From the sequence record OR449013: a stretch of 64,000 bases of DNA, one strand, 5' to 3'. A model generated the notes under the pieces. That model was not told where the DNA came from and ran no database searches. It worked only from the letters and a program-made list of their open reading frames with translations. This document shows, piece by piece, positions 340 through 44,697 of this stretch. A program made the translations under genes and the position numbers. Each line of letters opens with the position of its first letter. The first letter of the stretch is position 1. This DNA is from Escherichia phage Mangalyan.

Positions 340-918
340 TCAGCGTTCGTAGTAGATTTTATTTAACATTACCTCATCTTTTGCAGAAAGAATACCGAGA
401 TATGCATCACCGAATCTACCTGCAACAACCTCTGCATGATACATCACTTCGTTAATATCGTCAAGAGTGATAACTGGATGACCGTATCTCTCTGAGTATT
501 GTCTCAGAGTGCGATGTAGAGAGTCATCATCATAGGCAGACTTTTTAATATCACAAACACGACGAATAGCCTTGATGTCGAAAAACCCTGTACGATACCA
601 ACCAAGAAAAAGGTTTCGTGCAGTGTCAACATCCACATCAATACCATCAAGAACCTTATCTACAAGATAGCTGTCATCCTTTGGACCTGCTTCCTTAGTG
701 CGAATGTAGTTGCCATCTTTTCCAGGTGACAGCTCCTTCTCATCACCAACCTGCATGCCATCATTTGGCGGTGTTAACCACTTATCCGGATGCTTACGAT
801 CACGAGCGTTAGAATGATTACGCTGGAAACCGGGCTTCCACTTGAAAGTTTTCTCCATCTGTTCTTCATTCTGATAACGTTTTGCAATCTTTTCACGGTC
901 ATCTTTGCGTGAACCCAT
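340..918 (-). CDS. hypothetical protein (192 aa)
   Basis: long uninterrupted ORF co-oriented with neighbours; no motif I can name. Confidence 0.5.
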   Translation of the reverse strand: MGSRKDDREKIAKRYQNEEQMEKTFKWKPGFQRNHSNARDRKHPDKWLTPPNDGMQVGDEKELSPGKDGNYIRTKEAGPKDDSYLVDKVLDGIDVDVDTARNLFLGWYRTGFFDIKAIRRVCDIKKSAYDDDSLHRTLRQYSERYGHPVITLDDINEVMYHAEVVAGRFGDAYLGILSAKDEVMLNKIYYER

Positions 919-1423
919 AGCTGCCTCCTCTTCAAGTTATAGAAAAACTCACTGTATCGCTTTGTAACGAGCTTTTCTATCAAACTGGTGCGATTGCATT
1001 ACCTGGTATAGTTTATATAGCTGTGGAGCGATTTAGGGGCCTTCTTGTCAGTTTCCACACATAAACTTCATCCAAGCTCGCGCGGGAGACTCTCAACCGA
1101 CTCCTTACGGCGCTGGCAAGCTTTCGTCGGTGGTCCACATCAGTGCTCGGCCTTTGGCCTGCGCTATAGCTTCGCTCCCACACATGTTAACAGACCTGCA
1201 TGTGTGCACTTCTGTTATTGTGTGCACCAAGGAGGCCCGGCATCTCGCCCCTCGTAGGCGAGTGCCAATGAAGGGCCGACACTGCCCATAGTAAGTAATA
1301 AATTTAAAACATGGTACTTAGGATCTAGTATATTCTACATAAGTTAAGTATATGTACTTAGTACCATAAGTACTAGATCTTTTATTTTTTTATTATTTAG
1401 TTATTTTAGTTATATTCTTTATG

Positions 1424-1579: not shown

Positions 1580-1930
1580 CTAACCAGTTGTTGACATCCG
1601 AATAACTTCTTCTGGTGGCAAAACTTTGGAAAATGTGCATCTTTTACCTCTCCCTTGTGTGGATGTTTCAACCACTCCTGCACATTCTAAAGTTTTAACG
1701 CACGCTGCTGCTTTTGTTTTCTTTATCCCAACATCTGCTGCAATTTTCCTTGTGCTTGGTGTGAAGCGTGAATTTCCTCCAAGCTTATACCAGTTGTGCA
1801 GGTAGCAGTATACGATCTTGTCATACAAGTCAAGAACAACAACCTCCCCAGTTGTGTCATTCAAAACTTTTGACATAGATAGTATTTCAAGGGGGACTTT
1901 AAGATATAGCAGCTTATCCCCATCTTTCAT
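1580..1930 (-). CDS. hypothetical protein, possible helix-turn-helix DNA-binding protein
   Basis: 116-aa ORF; segment RKIAADVGIKKTKAAACVKTLECAGVV looks like an HTH region; gene ends beside the palindrome array. Confidence 0.45.
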   Translation of the reverse strand: MKDGDKLLYLKVPLEILSMSKVLNDTTGEVVVLDLYDKIVYCYLHNWYKLGGNSRFTPSTRKIAADVGIKKTKAAACVKTLECAGVVETSTQGRGKRCTFSKVLPPEEVIRMSTTG

Positions 1931-1977: not shown

Positions 1978-2532
1978 TTACTCCCTACTGTCAATATCAA
2001 AACTCATTGCAATACGGTATGCCTCCTCTAATGGTAAGAGTCTCCCCCACACATCCCAACCGACATCAAGCTGCCTGCCAAACAACTGTTGTGTGGTTCC
2101 GTGAGCATGACCGAACAGTTGGACTGATCCGTGAGGCTTTCTGTTCCACTTTGCAAACTGGTAATGGCTCATACAGATCAAATTCTTGTTGTGGCGAAGC
2201 TCGTAATAATCTACAACCTCATGACCGAACTCTTTCATAATTCTGACAGTCGTCCTTGTGTCATGGTTGCCACGAACAAGAATAATATGTCCGTTCAACA
2301 TATTTAGAATATCTGGAAGTAAGTTGTTGATATTCTTATCATTAGTGCACGCAATATCTCCCAAGTGGAACACAGTGTCTGCAGGTGACACAACAGAGTT
2401 CCACTTGGCGATGATTCCCGCATTCATACTGTCAAGATTGTGATCATACTGAGATCTGTGTTTTTGACATGAATCAAACTCCATGACCCGCTGATGGAGA
2501 AAGTGTGTGTCGCTTGTTACAAAGTATTTCAT
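1978..2532 (-). CDS. calcineurin-like metallophosphoesterase (candidate polynucleotide 3'-phosphatase or Ser/Thr phosphatase)
   Basis: motifs SDTHF (D-x-H), HLGDIA (GD), RGNHD (GNHD), GHAHG; start placed at internal ATG 2530-2532 (MKYF) with GAGGA RBS, directly after the stop of the upstream kinase ORF. Confidence 0.85.
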   Translation of the reverse strand: MKYFVTSDTHFLHQRVMEFDSCQKHRSQYDHNLDSMNAGIIAKWNSVVSPADTVFHLGDIACTNDKNINNLLPDILNMLNGHIILVRGNHDTRTTVRIMKEFGHEVVDYYELRHNKNLICMSHYQFAKWNRKPHGSVQLFGHAHGTTQQLFGRQLDVGWDVWGRLLPLEEAYRIAMSFDIDSRE

Positions 2533-2539
2533 ACATTCC

Positions 2540-2950
2540 TCATTTAAGTTTAATGCAGTTTTTAAGCTGGCGTTCCATACGATCCACAACCTTGTCTGGA
2601 ACATCATGAATGCTTTTATTACCGTGGCGGTTTTCAACCACGATCACGGTATAACTATACCCATGACTGATTGCCATGTCAACATATTCCTGCACATGTT
2701 TTTCTTTTGTAAACGTATTACTTACCACGATACGGTCGTATCCCATACGCATCATATCTTCTACGTTATCTTTGCACCATTTTGCTGCGAGTGTTACTTT
2801 ACTTGCATCCCAGTTGTAATTGCCGTCATCGTCATACCAGAACATGTCGTTCTCAAAATGTGGATACAGACCCTCTAAAGATAGCGCATTTGCCAGTGTT
2901 GATTTGCCAGACCCTGGTAGACCACGCACGATATATAGCATTTTAGACAT
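2540..2950 (-). CDS. P-loop kinase, polynucleotide 5'-kinase-like
   Basis: Walker A GLPGSGKST near N-terminus; start placed at ATG 2948-2950 (MSKMLYIV) preceded by GGAGGG; immediately upstream of the phosphoesterase gene. Confidence 0.65.
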   Translation of the reverse strand: MSKMLYIVRGLPGSGKSTLANALSLEGLYPHFENDMFWYDDDGNYNWDASKVTLAAKWCKDNVEDMMRMGYDRIVVSNTFTKEKHVQEYVDMAISHGYSYTVIVVENRHGNKSIHDVPDKVVDRMERQLKNCIKLK

Positions 2951-3010
2951 AGTGACCCTCCGTTTTAATTTCAACGGTAGTATACCTGACTGTTTTGTTA
3001 ATTTCAAGTG

Positions 3011-3040
3011 TTGACACTAGGTTATTTGTGTGGCAGGATA
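3011..3040 (+). promoter_or_regulatory. candidate sigma70-like promoter in divergent control region
   Basis: TTGACA at 3011-3016; -10 element poor; sits between divergent kinase and RNA ligase genes. Confidence 0.3.
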
Positions 3041-3050
3041 GACTGACAAA

Positions 3051-3986
3051 ATGACAAATGAGGAACGTATAATGAAGTATTTTAATGCAGACGACCTAGT
3101 TGACAAAGGTCTTGTAACCAGTAGGTATTACCCAGATCTCGGGCTAAAGATCTATAAATATGCCAGAAAAGTATTCTACAACAATCTGTGGCATTTGTCT
3201 CCGCGTTTACTGGAGTGCCGAGGTATTGTTGTTGGCAATGAGGGGAATGTTGTGGCATGGCCTTTCACAAAAGTATTCAACTTAGGAGAAAACTCCACCA
3301 ACCTACCGGACAGTAAACTTGTTACTGCGGTAGAGAAAAAGAACGGATTCCTCGGTGTGGTATCATCTCATAAAGGTGACCTATTGTTCTCAACAACCGG
3401 GTCTCTTGATTCTCCATATTGTAACCTTGCAAAGGAAACCATCCAAGAGCAATGTGGTAATTTAGATCTTATCAAGAAGGTTATGGGCAATGAAAACATG
3501 ACATTCATGTTTGAAATTTGTCACCCTTCAGATCCGCATATTGTTCAAGAAGACCATGGCGCATATTTGATAGGTTGCAGATATAATGATTCTGGAATAA
3601 TGCTACCAGAAGCAGCTTTAGATGGGATTGCCAAATACCTTGGTGCAAAACGTCCTCACACTGTGCGTGAAATTCCGTTCAGCTATGCAAAAGAGTTAGC
3701 TGCAGAAACAAGAGGTGAAGGATATATGATTCGTAAGCCTTACTACCCTTATGATCTGCAGTTGAAGATCAAGTCTCCATACTATCTGGCACGAAAGGCC
3801 GTAATGAGGGGTAAAGCTTGGAAGATTTGGGATGATGATATCTTTAAACGTGTTGACGAAGAGTTTTACGGCATGGTAAACTTCATTCGTAACAACTACA
3901 CAGAGGATGTATGGAACTGCCTCCTGGAGCAGGAACGCCGTGAGATACTTGACTGCTATTTCCACAACGAGGACTATATGCAATGA
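3051..3986 (+). CDS. rnlA: RNA ligase, Rnl1 family (T4 gp63-like)
   Basis: nucleotidyltransferase motif I K-x-N-G (VEKKNGFLG, Lys about residue 96); blocks LECRGIV and KVFNLGEN match the N-terminal region of T4 RNA ligase 1 as I recall it. Confidence 0.8.
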   Translation: MTNEERIMKYFNADDLVDKGLVTSRYYPDLGLKIYKYARKVFYNNLWHLSPRLLECRGIVVGNEGNVVAWPFTKVFNLGENSTNLPDSKLVTAVEKKNGFLGVVSSHKGDLLFSTTGSLDSPYCNLAKETIQEQCGNLDLIKKVMGNENMTFMFEICHPSDPHIVQEDHGAYLIGCRYNDSGIMLPEAALDGIAKYLGAKRPHTVREIPFSYAKELAAETRGEGYMIRKPYYPYDLQLKIKSPYYLARKAVMRGKAWKIWDDDIFKRVDEEFYGMVNFIRNNYTEDVWNCLLEQERREILDCYFHNEDYMQ

Positions 3987-41667: not shown

Positions 41668-41757
41668 ATGAGAACATTGTCCGAAGTTTTAGTGGTGATC
41701 CTGATGATCATTACGTCCATAGCGGCTGTTGCCGGAATACTCACGGGTGGAACATGA
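41668..41757 (+). CDS. hydrophobic mini-protein (29 aa)
   Basis: below cutoff; ATG 8 nt after GGAG; MRTLSEVLVVILMIITSIAAVAGILTGGT. Confidence 0.35.
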   Translation: MRTLSEVLVVILMIITSIAAVAGILTGGT

Positions 41758-41966
41758 TAAACACACATGCATCTGAAGAGACATCCAAAGGAGTGACTAT
41801 ATGTCCCTTGGCTGAGCCAGTGAAAGAGGAAAACTTAGATTCTGAAGATTCTCCATCTTCGCTCCAGGTAGATCCTGAGGCTGATGACCTAACGTGGGAA
41901 GACATCGTAGACATCTGGTTCTCCATTATGCCTGAGCACGAAGAGTTCAGAGGTGGTAGACTATGA
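41754..41966 (+). CDS. hypothetical acidic protein (70 aa)
   Basis: ORF only; weak RBS. Confidence 0.3.
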   Translation: MINTHASEETSKGVTICPLAEPVKEENLDSEDSPSSLQVDPEADDLTWEDIVDIWFSIMPEHEEFRGGRL

Positions 41967-42087: not shown

Positions 42088-42303
42088 ATGAAGATAGAGA
42101 TATTTGGTGGAGCTGACAACACTCGTGGCCTGATTTACCTTGAATTCGATGAATCATACCTGCCAGAGGTGTTAAATATGGACTCTGTTGCTGAGGCTTT
42201 GGGAGTAAGTCCTAAAGATCTCCACTCTGGTGCTGAGATTGATGGTTGGGAGGAGACCATGAACATCGATTTCAGTGAAGTAGGGGATGAACCACTGGAC
42301 TGA
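42088..42303 (+). CDS. small acidic protein (71 aa), MKIEI-type
   Basis: ATG after CAGAGGAG; last rightward gene. Confidence 0.55.
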   Translation: MKIEIFGGADNTRGLIYLEFDESYLPEVLNMDSVAEALGVSPKDLHSGAEIDGWEETMNIDFSEVGDEPLD

Positions 42304-42430
42304 CACACAATTAGTTGCCCGGCTAAAGTGCTGGGAGCACCCATAACACATCTTTCAACTAAATTTTCTACCACCACAATCACTTACCTCCCACACATGA
42401 CTGTTTGCTTGTTTAGTGAGCAGTCATGCC

Positions 42431-42458
42431 TTGACATTCTTGCCTATCCTGATAAAAT
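42431..42458 (+). promoter_or_regulatory. candidate sigma70-like promoter at entry to ORF-free zone
   Basis: TTGACA 42431-42436, 16-bp spacer, TAAAAT 42453-42458; no ORF downstream. Confidence 0.4.
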
Positions 42459-42654
42459 TAAGTTCTTCTCTTTTCTTTTACCGAGTAATTCGGGTTTTCT
42501 GTTCTCTTCGGTTTGAAGGGGTATGGAGATACACCTGAGTGAACAGGGTGAACAACCGAACCATTGGCTATGGCATTAGCATGGCGAAGCGGACGGGTGA
42601 CGAAAGAGGGGCCGGAGGACACCAGTCACTGCCATATGATATATGGGTGATAAC

Positions 42655-43193
42655 CTGAAGAGTCTGAATAAGTGTTTAAGTACCAGTCAGAGGAAAAGGT
42701 GAATGGTAGCCGAAGGGGGAGGGGGGTTACCTGCTTCTGTAAACATGCATCTGAAATACTACTTTAGATAACCTGAACCTGCCTTTCTGACAAATATTCC
42801 CTATTAAACTTGAATTATTTATAGAAAATACCACAACACCACTTAAGTCTTTGATTTTACACACAAATCTTACAGATATTAAACCTCTCTATTTAACATA
42901 CCTGTAACATATACTATACTCCACCTGTCTGATCAATTTCCCCAACTACATCCCCATATTTTCCCTGTCTGTACTACCCCTGCCCCGCCGGGAGTCCCGT
43001 CATATCTGGCTTTCCAGCAAATATCACACCCACAAATATCATCACCTGAAGAGGGTTTCATCCCATAATACATGCCTTACCTGAAGAGCGCTTCATACAC
43101 CACATAAATTTTTTAATTGACCCCCTCCCCGCCGCCGGAGAGGTTGGCTTTTCCCACACAGACCTGGAGAGTCAGCCAGAAATATCTGAAGAG
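42655..43193. repeat. four dispersed copies of about 15-bp motif CCTGAAGAG(G/C)G(T/C)TTCA
   Basis: CTGAAGAG at about 42655, 43046, 43081, 43186. Confidence 0.7.
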
Positions 43194-43750
43194 GGTCTAG
43201 TTCTGCCCTGTCATAAGCGGTAGCGACTGGAGTGCTGCTAGGCGGACGAAATGGGAATACTTCTCATTCTTATAACAATTCTCAAATATCGAGGCAGTGA
43301 GGCAAATTAATAGGTGAGGCCGTTCACACAGTGGCACAACATTTGCAACCTATCTTGTGGGATTGAATGAGAATACCTATCATTGTGAGAACTGTTATCA
43401 TTACGGGCAATTTAACATAATACCCATTATGCGCACCACTGGCGATACATACAGGGATTGATAACATGGGTTACTGTTTACGCACATAACAATTATATTT
43501 CTTACTATTTGTGTGGGATATAGTTAGCAGCCGATAGATTAGATATTAACCTGCAGACTTCTGACCGTCCAGACGTCTAAACGCCCACACACCAAGGATT
43601 ATACATACACTCCTGAATGTAAACAGGGCCGCAAAAATGCTACCATACAAGCTTGTAAATTTTTCATGCAGCACTTGACAAAGAGGAGAAAAACTTGTCT
43701 GACATAATGTGACCTAACTGACACAACATGACACTTTTACACACCTATTA

Positions 43751-43820
43751 GTTTACACACTGGATTGTTTACATTCCTGATTGTTCACATGCTAACCATT
43801 TACATGATTGACTGTTTACA
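43751..43820. repeat. iteron-like array: five copies of GTTTACA (variants GTTCACA, ATTTACA) at 15-16 bp spacing
   Basis: copies starting about 43751, 43767, 43783, 43798, 43814. Confidence 0.75.
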
Positions 43821-43833
43821 CACCGATAATCAG

Positions 43834-44083
43834 CCATGCCATTCGTTTGCATGACAATAATTATACATGACAATAATCGCACTGATCATAATTAGCATGA
43901 CATAATATAAAAGCAGGGCAACTATTAGCAGATCTATAGTTGCCTTGCTTGTTATGTCATGATTAACTAAATACAAGGCAACTATGATCTGATTAATAGT
44001 TTGCAGACAAACTATCACGGGGGTGATGGTTACTGCTTTTATATTATGTCGCGACTCCGTCGCGCCATGCCATTCGTTTGCAT
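43834..44083. repeat. direct 19-bp repeat CCATGCCATTCGTTTGCAT (two copies) flanking inverted repeats GGCAACTAT / ATAGTTGCC
   Basis: 19-mer at 43834-43852 and 44065-44083; palindrome arms at 43917-43925 / 43936-43944; second related palindrome about 43977-44005. Confidence 0.7.
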
Positions 44084-44697
44084 AGTTGCCTTATTGTTAC
44101 AGATAAAATAATTGTATTGTTAATTATTTCTTATCTTTCTATTAGTCATCTAATGATTTCAGTTAATATAGTAACGTACAGTAAACATTAGACGACTAAA
44201 GATTTCTATGCTTATGGTAACCTAACGTGACAATTCCAGACTGTTTACGAAAAATGTTGACACCTGGGCCGATTTATGTTATGCAGTTTACACGAATAAT
44301 TATTTTATGCAGGTATTGACTATTCCGTTATTCTATGGTTGGAATAAATGCTTAGCAGGCTATAGAATGGCGAGCGTACGTAAATTCTGAGATCTGGCGG
44401 CTATAGTTATACTCGATTTTTCACGTAGAAAACGCTTTTGTAGTTATGTAAGTGTATGACTTATAAAGTTGACAAGCTATTGAATATATGCATCAGGTTA
44501 AATTTTGTGCAAATGCTGCATTACGTGCAATTTTGGAAGGAAAAACGTGTAAAAATGGCCCTGCTACCACACAATGAAAAATTATGCAATAGTTATTTTA
44601 TATGTATGTTTGTACAGTGTGTGGGATTGATGGCTCGTCAATTATTCCACTTGCCAGGTAGGGCCGTTTATGGTAGGGGGAAGAGCAGACAAAAAGA

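Follow-up and report, generated by a model that had tools for sequence, protein, structure and literature searches.

We analysed a 64,000-nt stretch of the genome of Escherichia phage Mangalyan (sequence record OR449013; the whole of this stretch is called the window) and found a conserved element of about 295 nt at positions 990-1284, which includes a GC-rich island. The element shows no coding signal, and compensated base-pair changes indicate that it is structured and that its fold is conserved. It lies beside a module resembling a replication origin, and its homologues were found in small circular plasmids of E. coli that are probably satellites of phages. With about even confidence we read it as a single-copy, non-coding, structure-conserving element, most likely a minus-strand RNA, located beside an origin-like module and common to phages and satellites.

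Composition, extent and distribution

A first-pass annotation, made from the letters of the window, had described a GC-rich island of about 250 bp at 1040-1290 with an AT-rich segment and a palindrome array beside it, and had suggested that it encodes a structured RNA. The composition and the setting were confirmed. The G+C content of 1040-1290 is 56.6%, compared with a mean of 42.6% (standard deviation 3.5) over all 250-nt segments of the window (z about 4). This is the maximum in the 64 kb, the second-highest segment having 53.2%. Low G+C content is observed at 1291-1420, and four copies of GTGTCCGTATCACGGACAG.. form the palindrome array at 1423-1508. The conserved element extends to the left of the island, to about 990; similarity to the elements of satellites runs from GCGATTGCA (991-999) through GACACT (1278-1283). 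A covariance-model search of the core retrieved a single copy in the window (106.9 bits).

Over the region 900-1600, 118 phage records are 90-100% identical to the window, and each of them is a Vequintavirus (an rV5-like myovirus of E. coli); no other matches were found among the 50,697 records of the phage collection. Each of the 118 records covers at least 80% of the query 1000-1320, and thus the island is present in all of them. Both flanking proteins and the island end at the genus boundary, and no more distant phage relatives were reached. Eighteen of the 118 records were deposited as 'Campylobacter phage' (accessions MG0656xx). These are Vequintavirus genomes, one of which (C12, MG065635.1) is 100% identical to window positions 1000-1320, and they probably represent mislabelled or contaminant assemblies.

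The element is conserved in a mosaic manner. In an alignment of 19 distinct phage versions of the region 346-1930, which also underlies the codon-position figures below, the core (1073-1140) and the hairpin (1230-1284) have nucleotide diversities of 0.033 and 0.037, values as low as those at codon positions 1 and 2 of the neighbouring genes. The middle reaches 0.10 (0.099), and 991-1072 reaches 0.125. This pattern fits the expectation for functional modules.

Structure and covariation

The element consists of the following parts.

990-1284, minus strand favoured: the full conserved non-coding element, about 295 nt, delimited by similarity to satellite elements
1234-1277, minus strand: module H1, a 44-nt hairpin with stems GGCCC/GGGCC, GGCA/TGCC and CTCGCC/GGCGAG
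1141-1229, minus strand: the variable middle, with a GGCC-TTT-GGCC hairpin (1149-1159) and an extended hairpin
1071-1148, minus strand: the core module, the most conserved part, with helix A formed by 1126-1131 and 1096-1101
991-1072, minus strand: the 3' part in the minus sense, with the motif GGCCCCTAAAT, two mini-hairpins and GCGATTGCA

The inverted repeat CTCGCC/GGCGAG pointed out in the first-pass annotation does exist, one base away from where it had been placed (its arms are 1244-1249 and 1257-1262), and it forms the tip of H1. The hairpin has a 7-nt loop at 1250-1256 and a conserved GACACT flank at 1278-1283. Across 16 distinct sequences, 99.2% of the cells in its stems are paired. Two of the 15 pairs are changed on both sides, each from G-C to U-A, in satellites L013 and L080, and the remaining differences are confined to loops or the bulge. 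In phage ECML-10 the loop has a 1-nt insertion.

Helix A of the core reads, in the minus sense, ACCGAC/GUCGGU in phages and GCUGCC/GGCAGC in plasmids, so that three of the six pairs are changed on both sides; several phages carry a G.U intermediate. All 108 cells (100%) are paired in 18 distinct sequences. The helix encloses a 24-nt loop that is invariant except for one base. Both helix A and H1 are in the minimum-free-energy fold or within 0.1 kcal/mol of it, as forcing both costs 0.1 kcal/mol.

RNAalifold alone selects a nested alternative and misses helix A, because this helix crosses invariant GCGC/GGA stems; therefore, pairs were counted on a hand-specified structure. In the hand-specified stems 99.2-99.6% of cells are paired, and when the partners are slid by one to three columns this falls to 29-52%. 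Comparison of the phage with plasmid L013 over the core and H1 blocks yields 16 substitutions. Ten of them form five fully compensated pairs and none breaks a pair; one further stem pair shows a G.U intermediate. When the same 16 substitutions were placed at random, five or more compensated pairs were obtained in none of 200,000 trials, and three or more in 53. The compensatory changes that the first-pass annotation had proposed to look for are thus present in the comparison of phages with plasmids, with no uncompensated substitution in the stems, and the structural half of its proposal is supported. The other half, namely that the molecule is RNA, is considered below. The comparison covers phages that are at least 89% identical and one plasmid lineage.

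The crossing stems constitute a possible H-type pseudoknot, in which 1110-1113 and 1102-1104 pair with 1080-1083 and 1085-1087 (GCGC..GGA with UCC.GCGC). It agrees with all observed variation.

In the variable middle, the extended hairpin is built on CACACATG/CATGTGTG (1179-1206) and AACAGA/TCTGTT. In the divergent contig L062 the latter stem, as read by eye, has A-U replaced by C-G. The middle also contains a direct repeat GTGTGCAC. An 18-nt deletion between its copies (window positions 1201-1218) is seen in rV5 (DQ832317) and Pr121LW, the latter having a further 3-nt deletion at 1166-1168. In the 3' part, the motif GGCCCCTAAAT corresponds to the plus-strand sequence ATTTAGGGGCC at 1031-1041 and is retained in phages and in all examined satellites but one. 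The mini-hairpins 1020-1029 and 1007-1017 have double changes in L062 and satellites, yet contain mismatches within phages.

Several other candidate structures were rejected. A pairing at long range between the H1 loop (AGGGGC) and the 3' motif GCCCCU was dropped, because it is broken in satellite L080. A long helix closing the 5' and 3' ends and a helix GUUUAU... with ...AUAAAC are unsupported by contig L062. The similarity of the satellite core to the GGAA-loop region of the signal recognition particle 4.5S RNA is due to a covarying strand of helix A and is absent in the phage.

Coding potential

The first-pass annotation had listed 1045-1257 on the plus strand as the only open reading frame (ORF) of the island. 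In fact, five ORFs of at least 30 aa overlap it.

1013-1183, minus strand: 56 aa, GTG start ('ORF 78' of rV5)
1045-1257, plus strand
1105-1230, minus strand
1130-1291, plus strand
1187-1282, minus strand

Public annotation of this region is inconsistent. The island is empty in most GenBank records, and 1013-1183 and 1187-1282 are listed as hypothetical proteins in some. In metagenomic relatives, gene callers place no gene in the homologous 661-nt gap.

The ORF 1045-1257 is not conserved as a protein: in 14 of the 19 distinct phage versions it is interrupted by one or two stops, in line with the expectation of the first-pass annotation. The ORF 1130-1291 has stops or frameshifts in most relatives, and 1187-1282 has a frameshift in L011. 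Diversity at codon positions 1/2/3 is 0.042/0.018/0.118 and 0.027/0.038/0.129 in the two flanking genes. This excess at third positions is absent from the ORFs of the island in the alignment of 19 versions. No families were found for four of the island ORFs in Pfam and PHROGs. By these comparisons the island appears to be non-coding.

The one ORF that might be a gene is ORF 78, since it is open with its GTG start in all 19 phage versions and is annotated in several GenBank records. However, its diversity is 0.055/0.084/0.053, again with no excess at the third position (compared with 0.04/0.02/0.12 in the neighbour gene), and it matches no family in Pfam or PHROGs. Its substitutions preserve base pairs and change residues radically: His-Arg-Arg and Ser-Arg-Leu of the phage correspond to Arg-Cys-Arg and Arg-Gln-Gln of plasmid L013. 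In this plasmid the same frame, read by eye, stops shortly past the core. Neither most annotators nor the metagenome gene callers predict ORF 78. That the island encodes this small protein seems very improbable.

Satellite-like plasmids

A sensitive BLAST search against genomes and plasmids of E. coli detected the two conserved modules of the element, and no other part of it, in small circular 'plasmids' of 13,238-13,697 bp and one 39.6-kb trimer. Between phage and plasmid, one match has 84% identity over 68 nt and the other 87% over 55 nt. The circular family of 13.2-14.3 kb comprises L013, L015-L017, L043, L048 and L077-L087, with accessions NZ_CP020521.1, NZ_CP178698.1, NZ_CP035869.1, NZ_CP043822.1 and CP148565.1 as well as metagenome and assembly contigs. 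A 19-mer scan of GTDB genomes gave only chance matches in GC-rich genomes, and a scan of metagenomes gave six true matches among 32. Scans of IMG/VR (by a protein query and by a 20-mer) yielded nothing usable.

These plasmids encode a major capsid protein, a Dit-like distal tail protein, a neck or tail-completion protein, a 700-aa tape-measure protein, Rep-like proteins of the HTH_36 family and a few small ORFs; neither terminase nor portal genes are annotated in them. They have a gene-free region of 2.2-2.9 kb. The Dit-like protein shares about 50% identity with proteins of Vequintavirus and is less closely related to those of other Vequintavirinae. The capsid protein is represented by 18 clusters, the largest with 441 member sequences. 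The source is E. coli wherever an organism is given, and the longest contigs are mostly 13.4-14.3 kb. As the set of virion genes is incomplete and includes relatives of structural proteins of the helper, the plasmids are probably a widespread, undescribed family of plasmid-borne satellites of rV5-like phages. We found no publications that deal with satellites of rV5 or with these plasmid accessions, and none on Vequintavirus transcriptomics that bears on this locus.

In the satellites the element occupies 290-530 nt and is built of cassettes, with modules combined freely.

5' hairpin: either the phage-like H1 or a C-run/G-run hairpin
Middle: one to four hairpin cassettes, each with a terminal UGUGUGGG, in place of the phage middle
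Core: either the phage-like core with helix A or a variant GUCCGGAU...AUCCGGAC hairpin
Common 3' part: GCCCCUAAAU and a GCC-UUCU-GGC hairpin

Further compensated changes are observed among the satellite cassettes. In every satellite the element abuts a satellite-specific repeat array, which is different from the phage repeats and is placed like them with respect to the element. Two strong sigma-70-like promoters, TTGACA-N17-TAAGAT and TTGACA-N18-TATAAG (the latter identified by eye), were found between the element and orf49 in L077 (2370-2410), L078 and L086. In some satellites a T4-late-like TATAAATA is also present upstream of orf49, which encodes a small hydrophobic protein.

The origin-like module and neighbouring genes

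To the right of the element lie, in order of increasing coordinates, an AT-rich stretch, four palindromic repeats and the gene of a winged-helix protein.

340-918, minus strand: gene of a 192-aa hypothetical protein (phrog_12226, with no function assigned there)
1291-1420, no strand: AT-rich spacer, candidate DNA-unwinding element, G+C about 33-38%, with inverted repeats of its own
1423-1508, no strand: four 17-bp palindromes, TGTCCGTATCACGGACA, with 21-22 bp spacing, iteron- or operator-like
1580-1930, minus strand: gene of a 116-aa winged-helix protein, a putative origin-binding initiator or regulator (phrog_12838 match)

The 116-aa protein matches phrog_12838, 'replication initiation protein', with E = 5e-80; matches to lambda-O-like families are weaker, and the score against Pfam HTH_36, 24.5 bits, is slightly under the cut-off. 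Its pairwise alignment with the 128-aa HTH_36 protein of satellite L078 (26% identity over 54 aa, E = 1e-6) indicates that the phage protein and the HTH_36 proteins of satellites are distant relatives.

The G+C content is 33.5% at 1301-1500 and 33.5-38.5% over 1201-1500. The spacer contains inverted repeats 1311-1321/1357-1367 and 1322-1330/1371-1379, and is conserved among phages (nucleotide diversity 0.035). The repeats are nested within 1311-1379, with the arms ATGGTACTTAG/CTTAGTACCAT and GATCTAGTA/TACTAGATC; elsewhere in the window this motif occurs no more often than by chance. Thus the locus has the parts of an iteron-type (lambda O-like) origin, that is, an initiator-type protein by homology, repeats at helical spacing and an AT-rich stretch. 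The rV5 paper found no origin and reported a skew change at 66.7 kb of rV5 (PMC3606486). This position is about 1-2 kb from the locus of the island.

The 192-aa protein has no relatives in Pfam, NCBIfam or PDB. The 116-aa gene is followed on the right by genes of metallophosphoesterase, polynucleotide kinase and a divergently transcribed RNA ligase. This RNA-repair-type cluster (window positions 1978-3986, the ligase being of the Rnl1 type) stands beside the origin-like module also in relatives L069-L075, where it is followed by genes of a cREC_REC protein and a SIR2-domain protein.

Strand and nature of the molecule

The minus strand is somewhat more probable than the plus strand as the sense of the element. 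It is the sense of the flanking genes in both phages and satellites. Read on the plus strand, the G.U pairs of helix A and of the CACACAUG/CAUGUGUG stem would turn into A.C mismatches. In the minus sense the sole variable base of the core loop toggles between GUAA and GGAA, both of which are GNRA tetraloops, and UNCG-type loops recur. Finally, fold predictions favour the minus strand: with RNA parameters it gives the better fold for 13 of the 15 satellite copies, and with DNA parameters for 13 of 16, the window copy being added to those of the satellites.

An Rfam scan was among the checks suggested by the first-pass annotation. It gave a negative result: none of the 4227 models of Rfam 15 matched at the gathering threshold in the whole window or in four satellites. 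The best sub-threshold match in 900-1600, to rli43, scored 21 bits where the threshold is 100 and covers the AT-rich repeats. ARAGORN predicted no tRNA or tmRNA genes in the 64-kb window, and we found no literature on the element. The element represents a modular structured family absent from Rfam and is likely to be a new structured-RNA family.

We infer RNA, as the first-pass annotation had suggested; the same covariation is expected of single-stranded DNA at an origin. One possibility, which we consider unlikely, is that the fold acts in the latter form, as an origin-associated priming or helicase-loading signal similar to ssi (G4 oric, RSF1010 ssiA/ssiB). Melting of the AT-rich stretch would expose it, and its hairpins, not covered by the single-stranded-DNA-binding protein, would position the T7-like primase-helicase of the phage. 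Satellites would retain the signal to have their origin fired by the replisome of the helper. Indeed, the element adjoins repeats and an AT-rich stretch in both the phage and the satellites, the minus strand is the more stable with DNA parameters too, and many loops are complements of C-GNA-G DNA mini-hairpins. The conserved 5' flank of the minus strand is GTGTC (GGGTC in L062), and we take both variants to be recognition sequences of T7-type primases. A gp4-like primase-helicase is encoded by rV5 (PMC3606486). However, at 295-530 nt and with a variable number of cassettes the element is far larger than known ssi signals, its most conserved module is about 150 nt away from the AT-rich stretch, and the GNRA toggle of the core loop has no rationale in DNA. 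Moreover, GTC triplets are common by chance, and no origin has been mapped in any rV5-like phage.

If the molecule is RNA, its function need not be linked to replication. No terminator-like sites (a GC-rich hairpin with a U-run) were found in 800-2000 on either strand. In phage and satellites alike the element is oriented like the genes that flank it, and no terminator separates it from them. It could be an intercistronic or leader RNA, serving as an RNase III- or RNase E-type site of processing or stability, or as an element of processive antitermination or a translational operator. It would then control the downstream leftward genes of the phage and, in satellites, the operon from orf49 and rep to the tape-measure gene, which is about 9 kb long and has the element upstream. 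H1, as a 15-bp interrupted hairpin, has the size of phage RNase III sites, and the conserved loop contains the Shine-Dalgarno-like sequence AAGGAG within the predicted fold. On the other hand, the sigma-70-like promoters of satellites are downstream of the element, the downstream genes of phage and satellites are wholly different, and no start codon occurs at a conserved distance from AAGGAG. We regard this alternative as rather doubtful.

A role in trans is quite improbable. The element might be a regulatory or decoy RNA of the P4 CI / P1 C4 immunity type, or a sponge or anti-defence RNA, shared because phage and satellite each manipulate the other or the host. The P4 CI and P1 C4 immunity RNAs, which arise by processing of a leader and base-pair with repeated boxes complementary to them, provide a precedent for an RNA family common to phages and a plasmid-capable satellite. 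In agreement with this, complementary short repeats CACACA and UGUGUGG(G) recur in phage and satellite elements, and the octamer CCCACACA is enriched eight-fold in the window (14 copies; 1.7 expected from shuffles, where the maximum was 5). However, its copies elsewhere have no consistent position or orientation relative to genes, no target was identified, the element is much longer than known immunity RNAs, and it matches neither C4 nor any other Rfam family.

A non-coding sequence common to helper and satellite is also the classic signature of a shared cos or pac site, and the satellites have no annotated terminase genes. The rV5 genome is circularly permuted (PMC3606486), and headful packaging from a pac site would therefore be expected. 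Hence, the element might be the packaging site of the helper, copied by satellites for packaging by its terminase. We consider this very improbable, as covariation in stems and conserved loops are unexpected for a site bound by protein in double-stranded form. Further, the phage-like core and H1 are missing from half of the satellites, the element is located in the early or replication region, far from the late genes 27-66 of rV5, and a better candidate for a universally shared box is found at window positions 43267-43290 (see below).

A number of observations weigh against a minus-strand RNA recognised by the helper at an origin. The five compensated pairs stem from essentially one divergence, that of phages and plasmids, so that independent covariation events are few, and the helices were selected with the alignment in view. 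The stems of the pseudoknot have no support from covariation because they never vary. Wobble events in the 3-bp mini-hairpin 1020-1029 favour the plus strand, and alifold energies do not separate the strands. Some satellites have a hairpin followed by a T-run in the plus sense; the count of these is not above shuffle expectation. The element is not flanked, on either strand, by a sigma-70-like promoter or an intrinsic terminator, and so in the phage it would be transcribed at least as leftward read-through. The sigma-70-like promoters downstream of the element mean that in satellites it need not be an operon leader. About half of the satellites have a different core, and the search found no phage with this variant, which weakens the idea of a handle for recognition by the helper. 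Finally, the origin function of the locus is itself a prediction.

Comparison with known systems

The element has the defining features of none of the systems with which it was compared: ori-lambda, ssi signals, ColE1 RNA II and P4 CI / C4.

Similarly to ori-lambda, the locus combines a small O-like winged-helix protein, four dyad-symmetric repeats about two helical turns apart, an AT-rich stretch and a GC-rich structured segment. However, the repeats lie outside the initiator gene, the initiator has 116 aa and no recruiting domain, the GC-rich segment of about 295 nt shows base-pair covariation, and the origin is predicted. The ssi signals (G4 oric, the n' site of phiX174, ssiA/ssiB of RSF1010, Frpo of F) are likewise GC-rich multi-hairpin structures of one strand situated by repeats and an AT-rich stretch, with stems retained by compensation and loops and flanks retained by sequence. 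The element differs from them in its much larger size and modular composition, and no sequence similarity to them was found. As in the case of the ColE1 primer RNA II, which is made beside a plasmid origin, a long, highly folded molecule, here presumed to be RNA, adjoins an origin, here a predicted one; unlike in ColE1, there is no RNA I/RNA II architecture or similarity, and Rep proteins and repeats are present instead.

The P4 CI RNA and C4 of P1 and P7 (RF01695) are also encoded in a structured non-coding RNA region upstream of the replication-gene operon of a satellite, have relatives in phages and contain short mutually complementary boxes. In contrast, the Rfam scans of the window and four satellites detected no match to this family in sequence or structure, and the element is four to seven times longer. 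P2, the helper of P4, has no such RNA, whereas here it is the lytic helper that carries the element.

To our knowledge, no shared structured non-coding element has been described for PLE and ICP1. The plasmids, as probable satellites, are like PLE in having an initiator and repeats of their own and in apparently depending on a lytic myovirus; they differ from it in being extrachromosomal and having their own capsid, Dit and tape-measure genes. The DNA polymerase and primase-helicase of rV5 resemble those of ICP1 (PMC3606486).

Other sites shared by phage and probable satellites

Window positions 42303-44456 form another gene-free stretch, about 2.1 kb long, in which no ORF reaches 62 aa. It contains GC-rich hairpin-like sequence, CTGAAGAG repeats and five of the 14 CCCACACA/TGTGTGGG octamers of the window, and may hold further non-coding RNAs or cis sites. 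The octamer CCCACACA, which has no consistent position relative to genes across the window, also punctuates the hairpin cassettes of satellite elements.

Within this stretch, on the minus strand at 43267-43290, there is a 24-nt box GATATTTGAGAATTGTTATAAGAA that is identical at 23 of 24 positions to a box in the gene-free region of satellites. It was found in all ten satellites examined for it, also where the core is of the variant type. Some 100 nt downstream of the box, GATATTTCTG occurs in both phage and satellites. The box is a second non-coding site shared by helper and satellites, and a candidate pac or regulatory site.

A 70-aa ORF at 41754-41966 on the plus strand contains a 57-nt stretch with 82% identity to the C-terminal half of the Rep-like gene of a satellite (L013, 10882-10938). 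It encodes a short acidic peptide, which may be a shared interaction motif.

Proposed mechanism and implications

In the preferred reading, leftward transcription out of the origin region would yield a compactly folded RNA. A factor that helper infection supplies, either related to the replisome or primer, or an RNA-binding regulator, would dock at H1 and at the helix-A core, which has the invariant 24-nt loop. Satellites would retain these modules so that their own origin or operon answers the helper. This more specific proposal, namely an RNA coupled to an origin or operon, with a helper-infection factor binding the hairpin and the core and with satellites copying them, is put forward tentatively and at clearly less than even confidence.

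In a broader version, the phage carries in the island its copy of a new, modular, structured RNA that links lytic rV5-like phages with an unrecognised, widespread group of plasmid-borne satellites of E. coli; we consider this, too, less probable than not. A helper-encoded factor on the hairpin and the core would fire the origin or switch on the operon, and the satellites would have captured the modules to sense and exploit this factor, or to titrate it.

The rV5-like phages have been isolated widely, are components of cocktails for therapy and biocontrol, and have representatives in the BASEL collection. For these phages the locus offers a candidate origin and a candidate regulatory RNA, as well as a structured element with no counterpart in Rfam. 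It also provides a direct sequence link between a strictly lytic myovirus and the satellite-like 13-14-kb 'plasmids' of hundreds of E. coli assemblies. If the shared modules do mediate communication between helper and satellite, this would be a tractable model in E. coli of hijacking at the level of RNA or origin, complementing P4/P2 and PLE/ICP1, and it would bear on prediction of the effects of resident plasmids on the efficacy of therapeutic phages.

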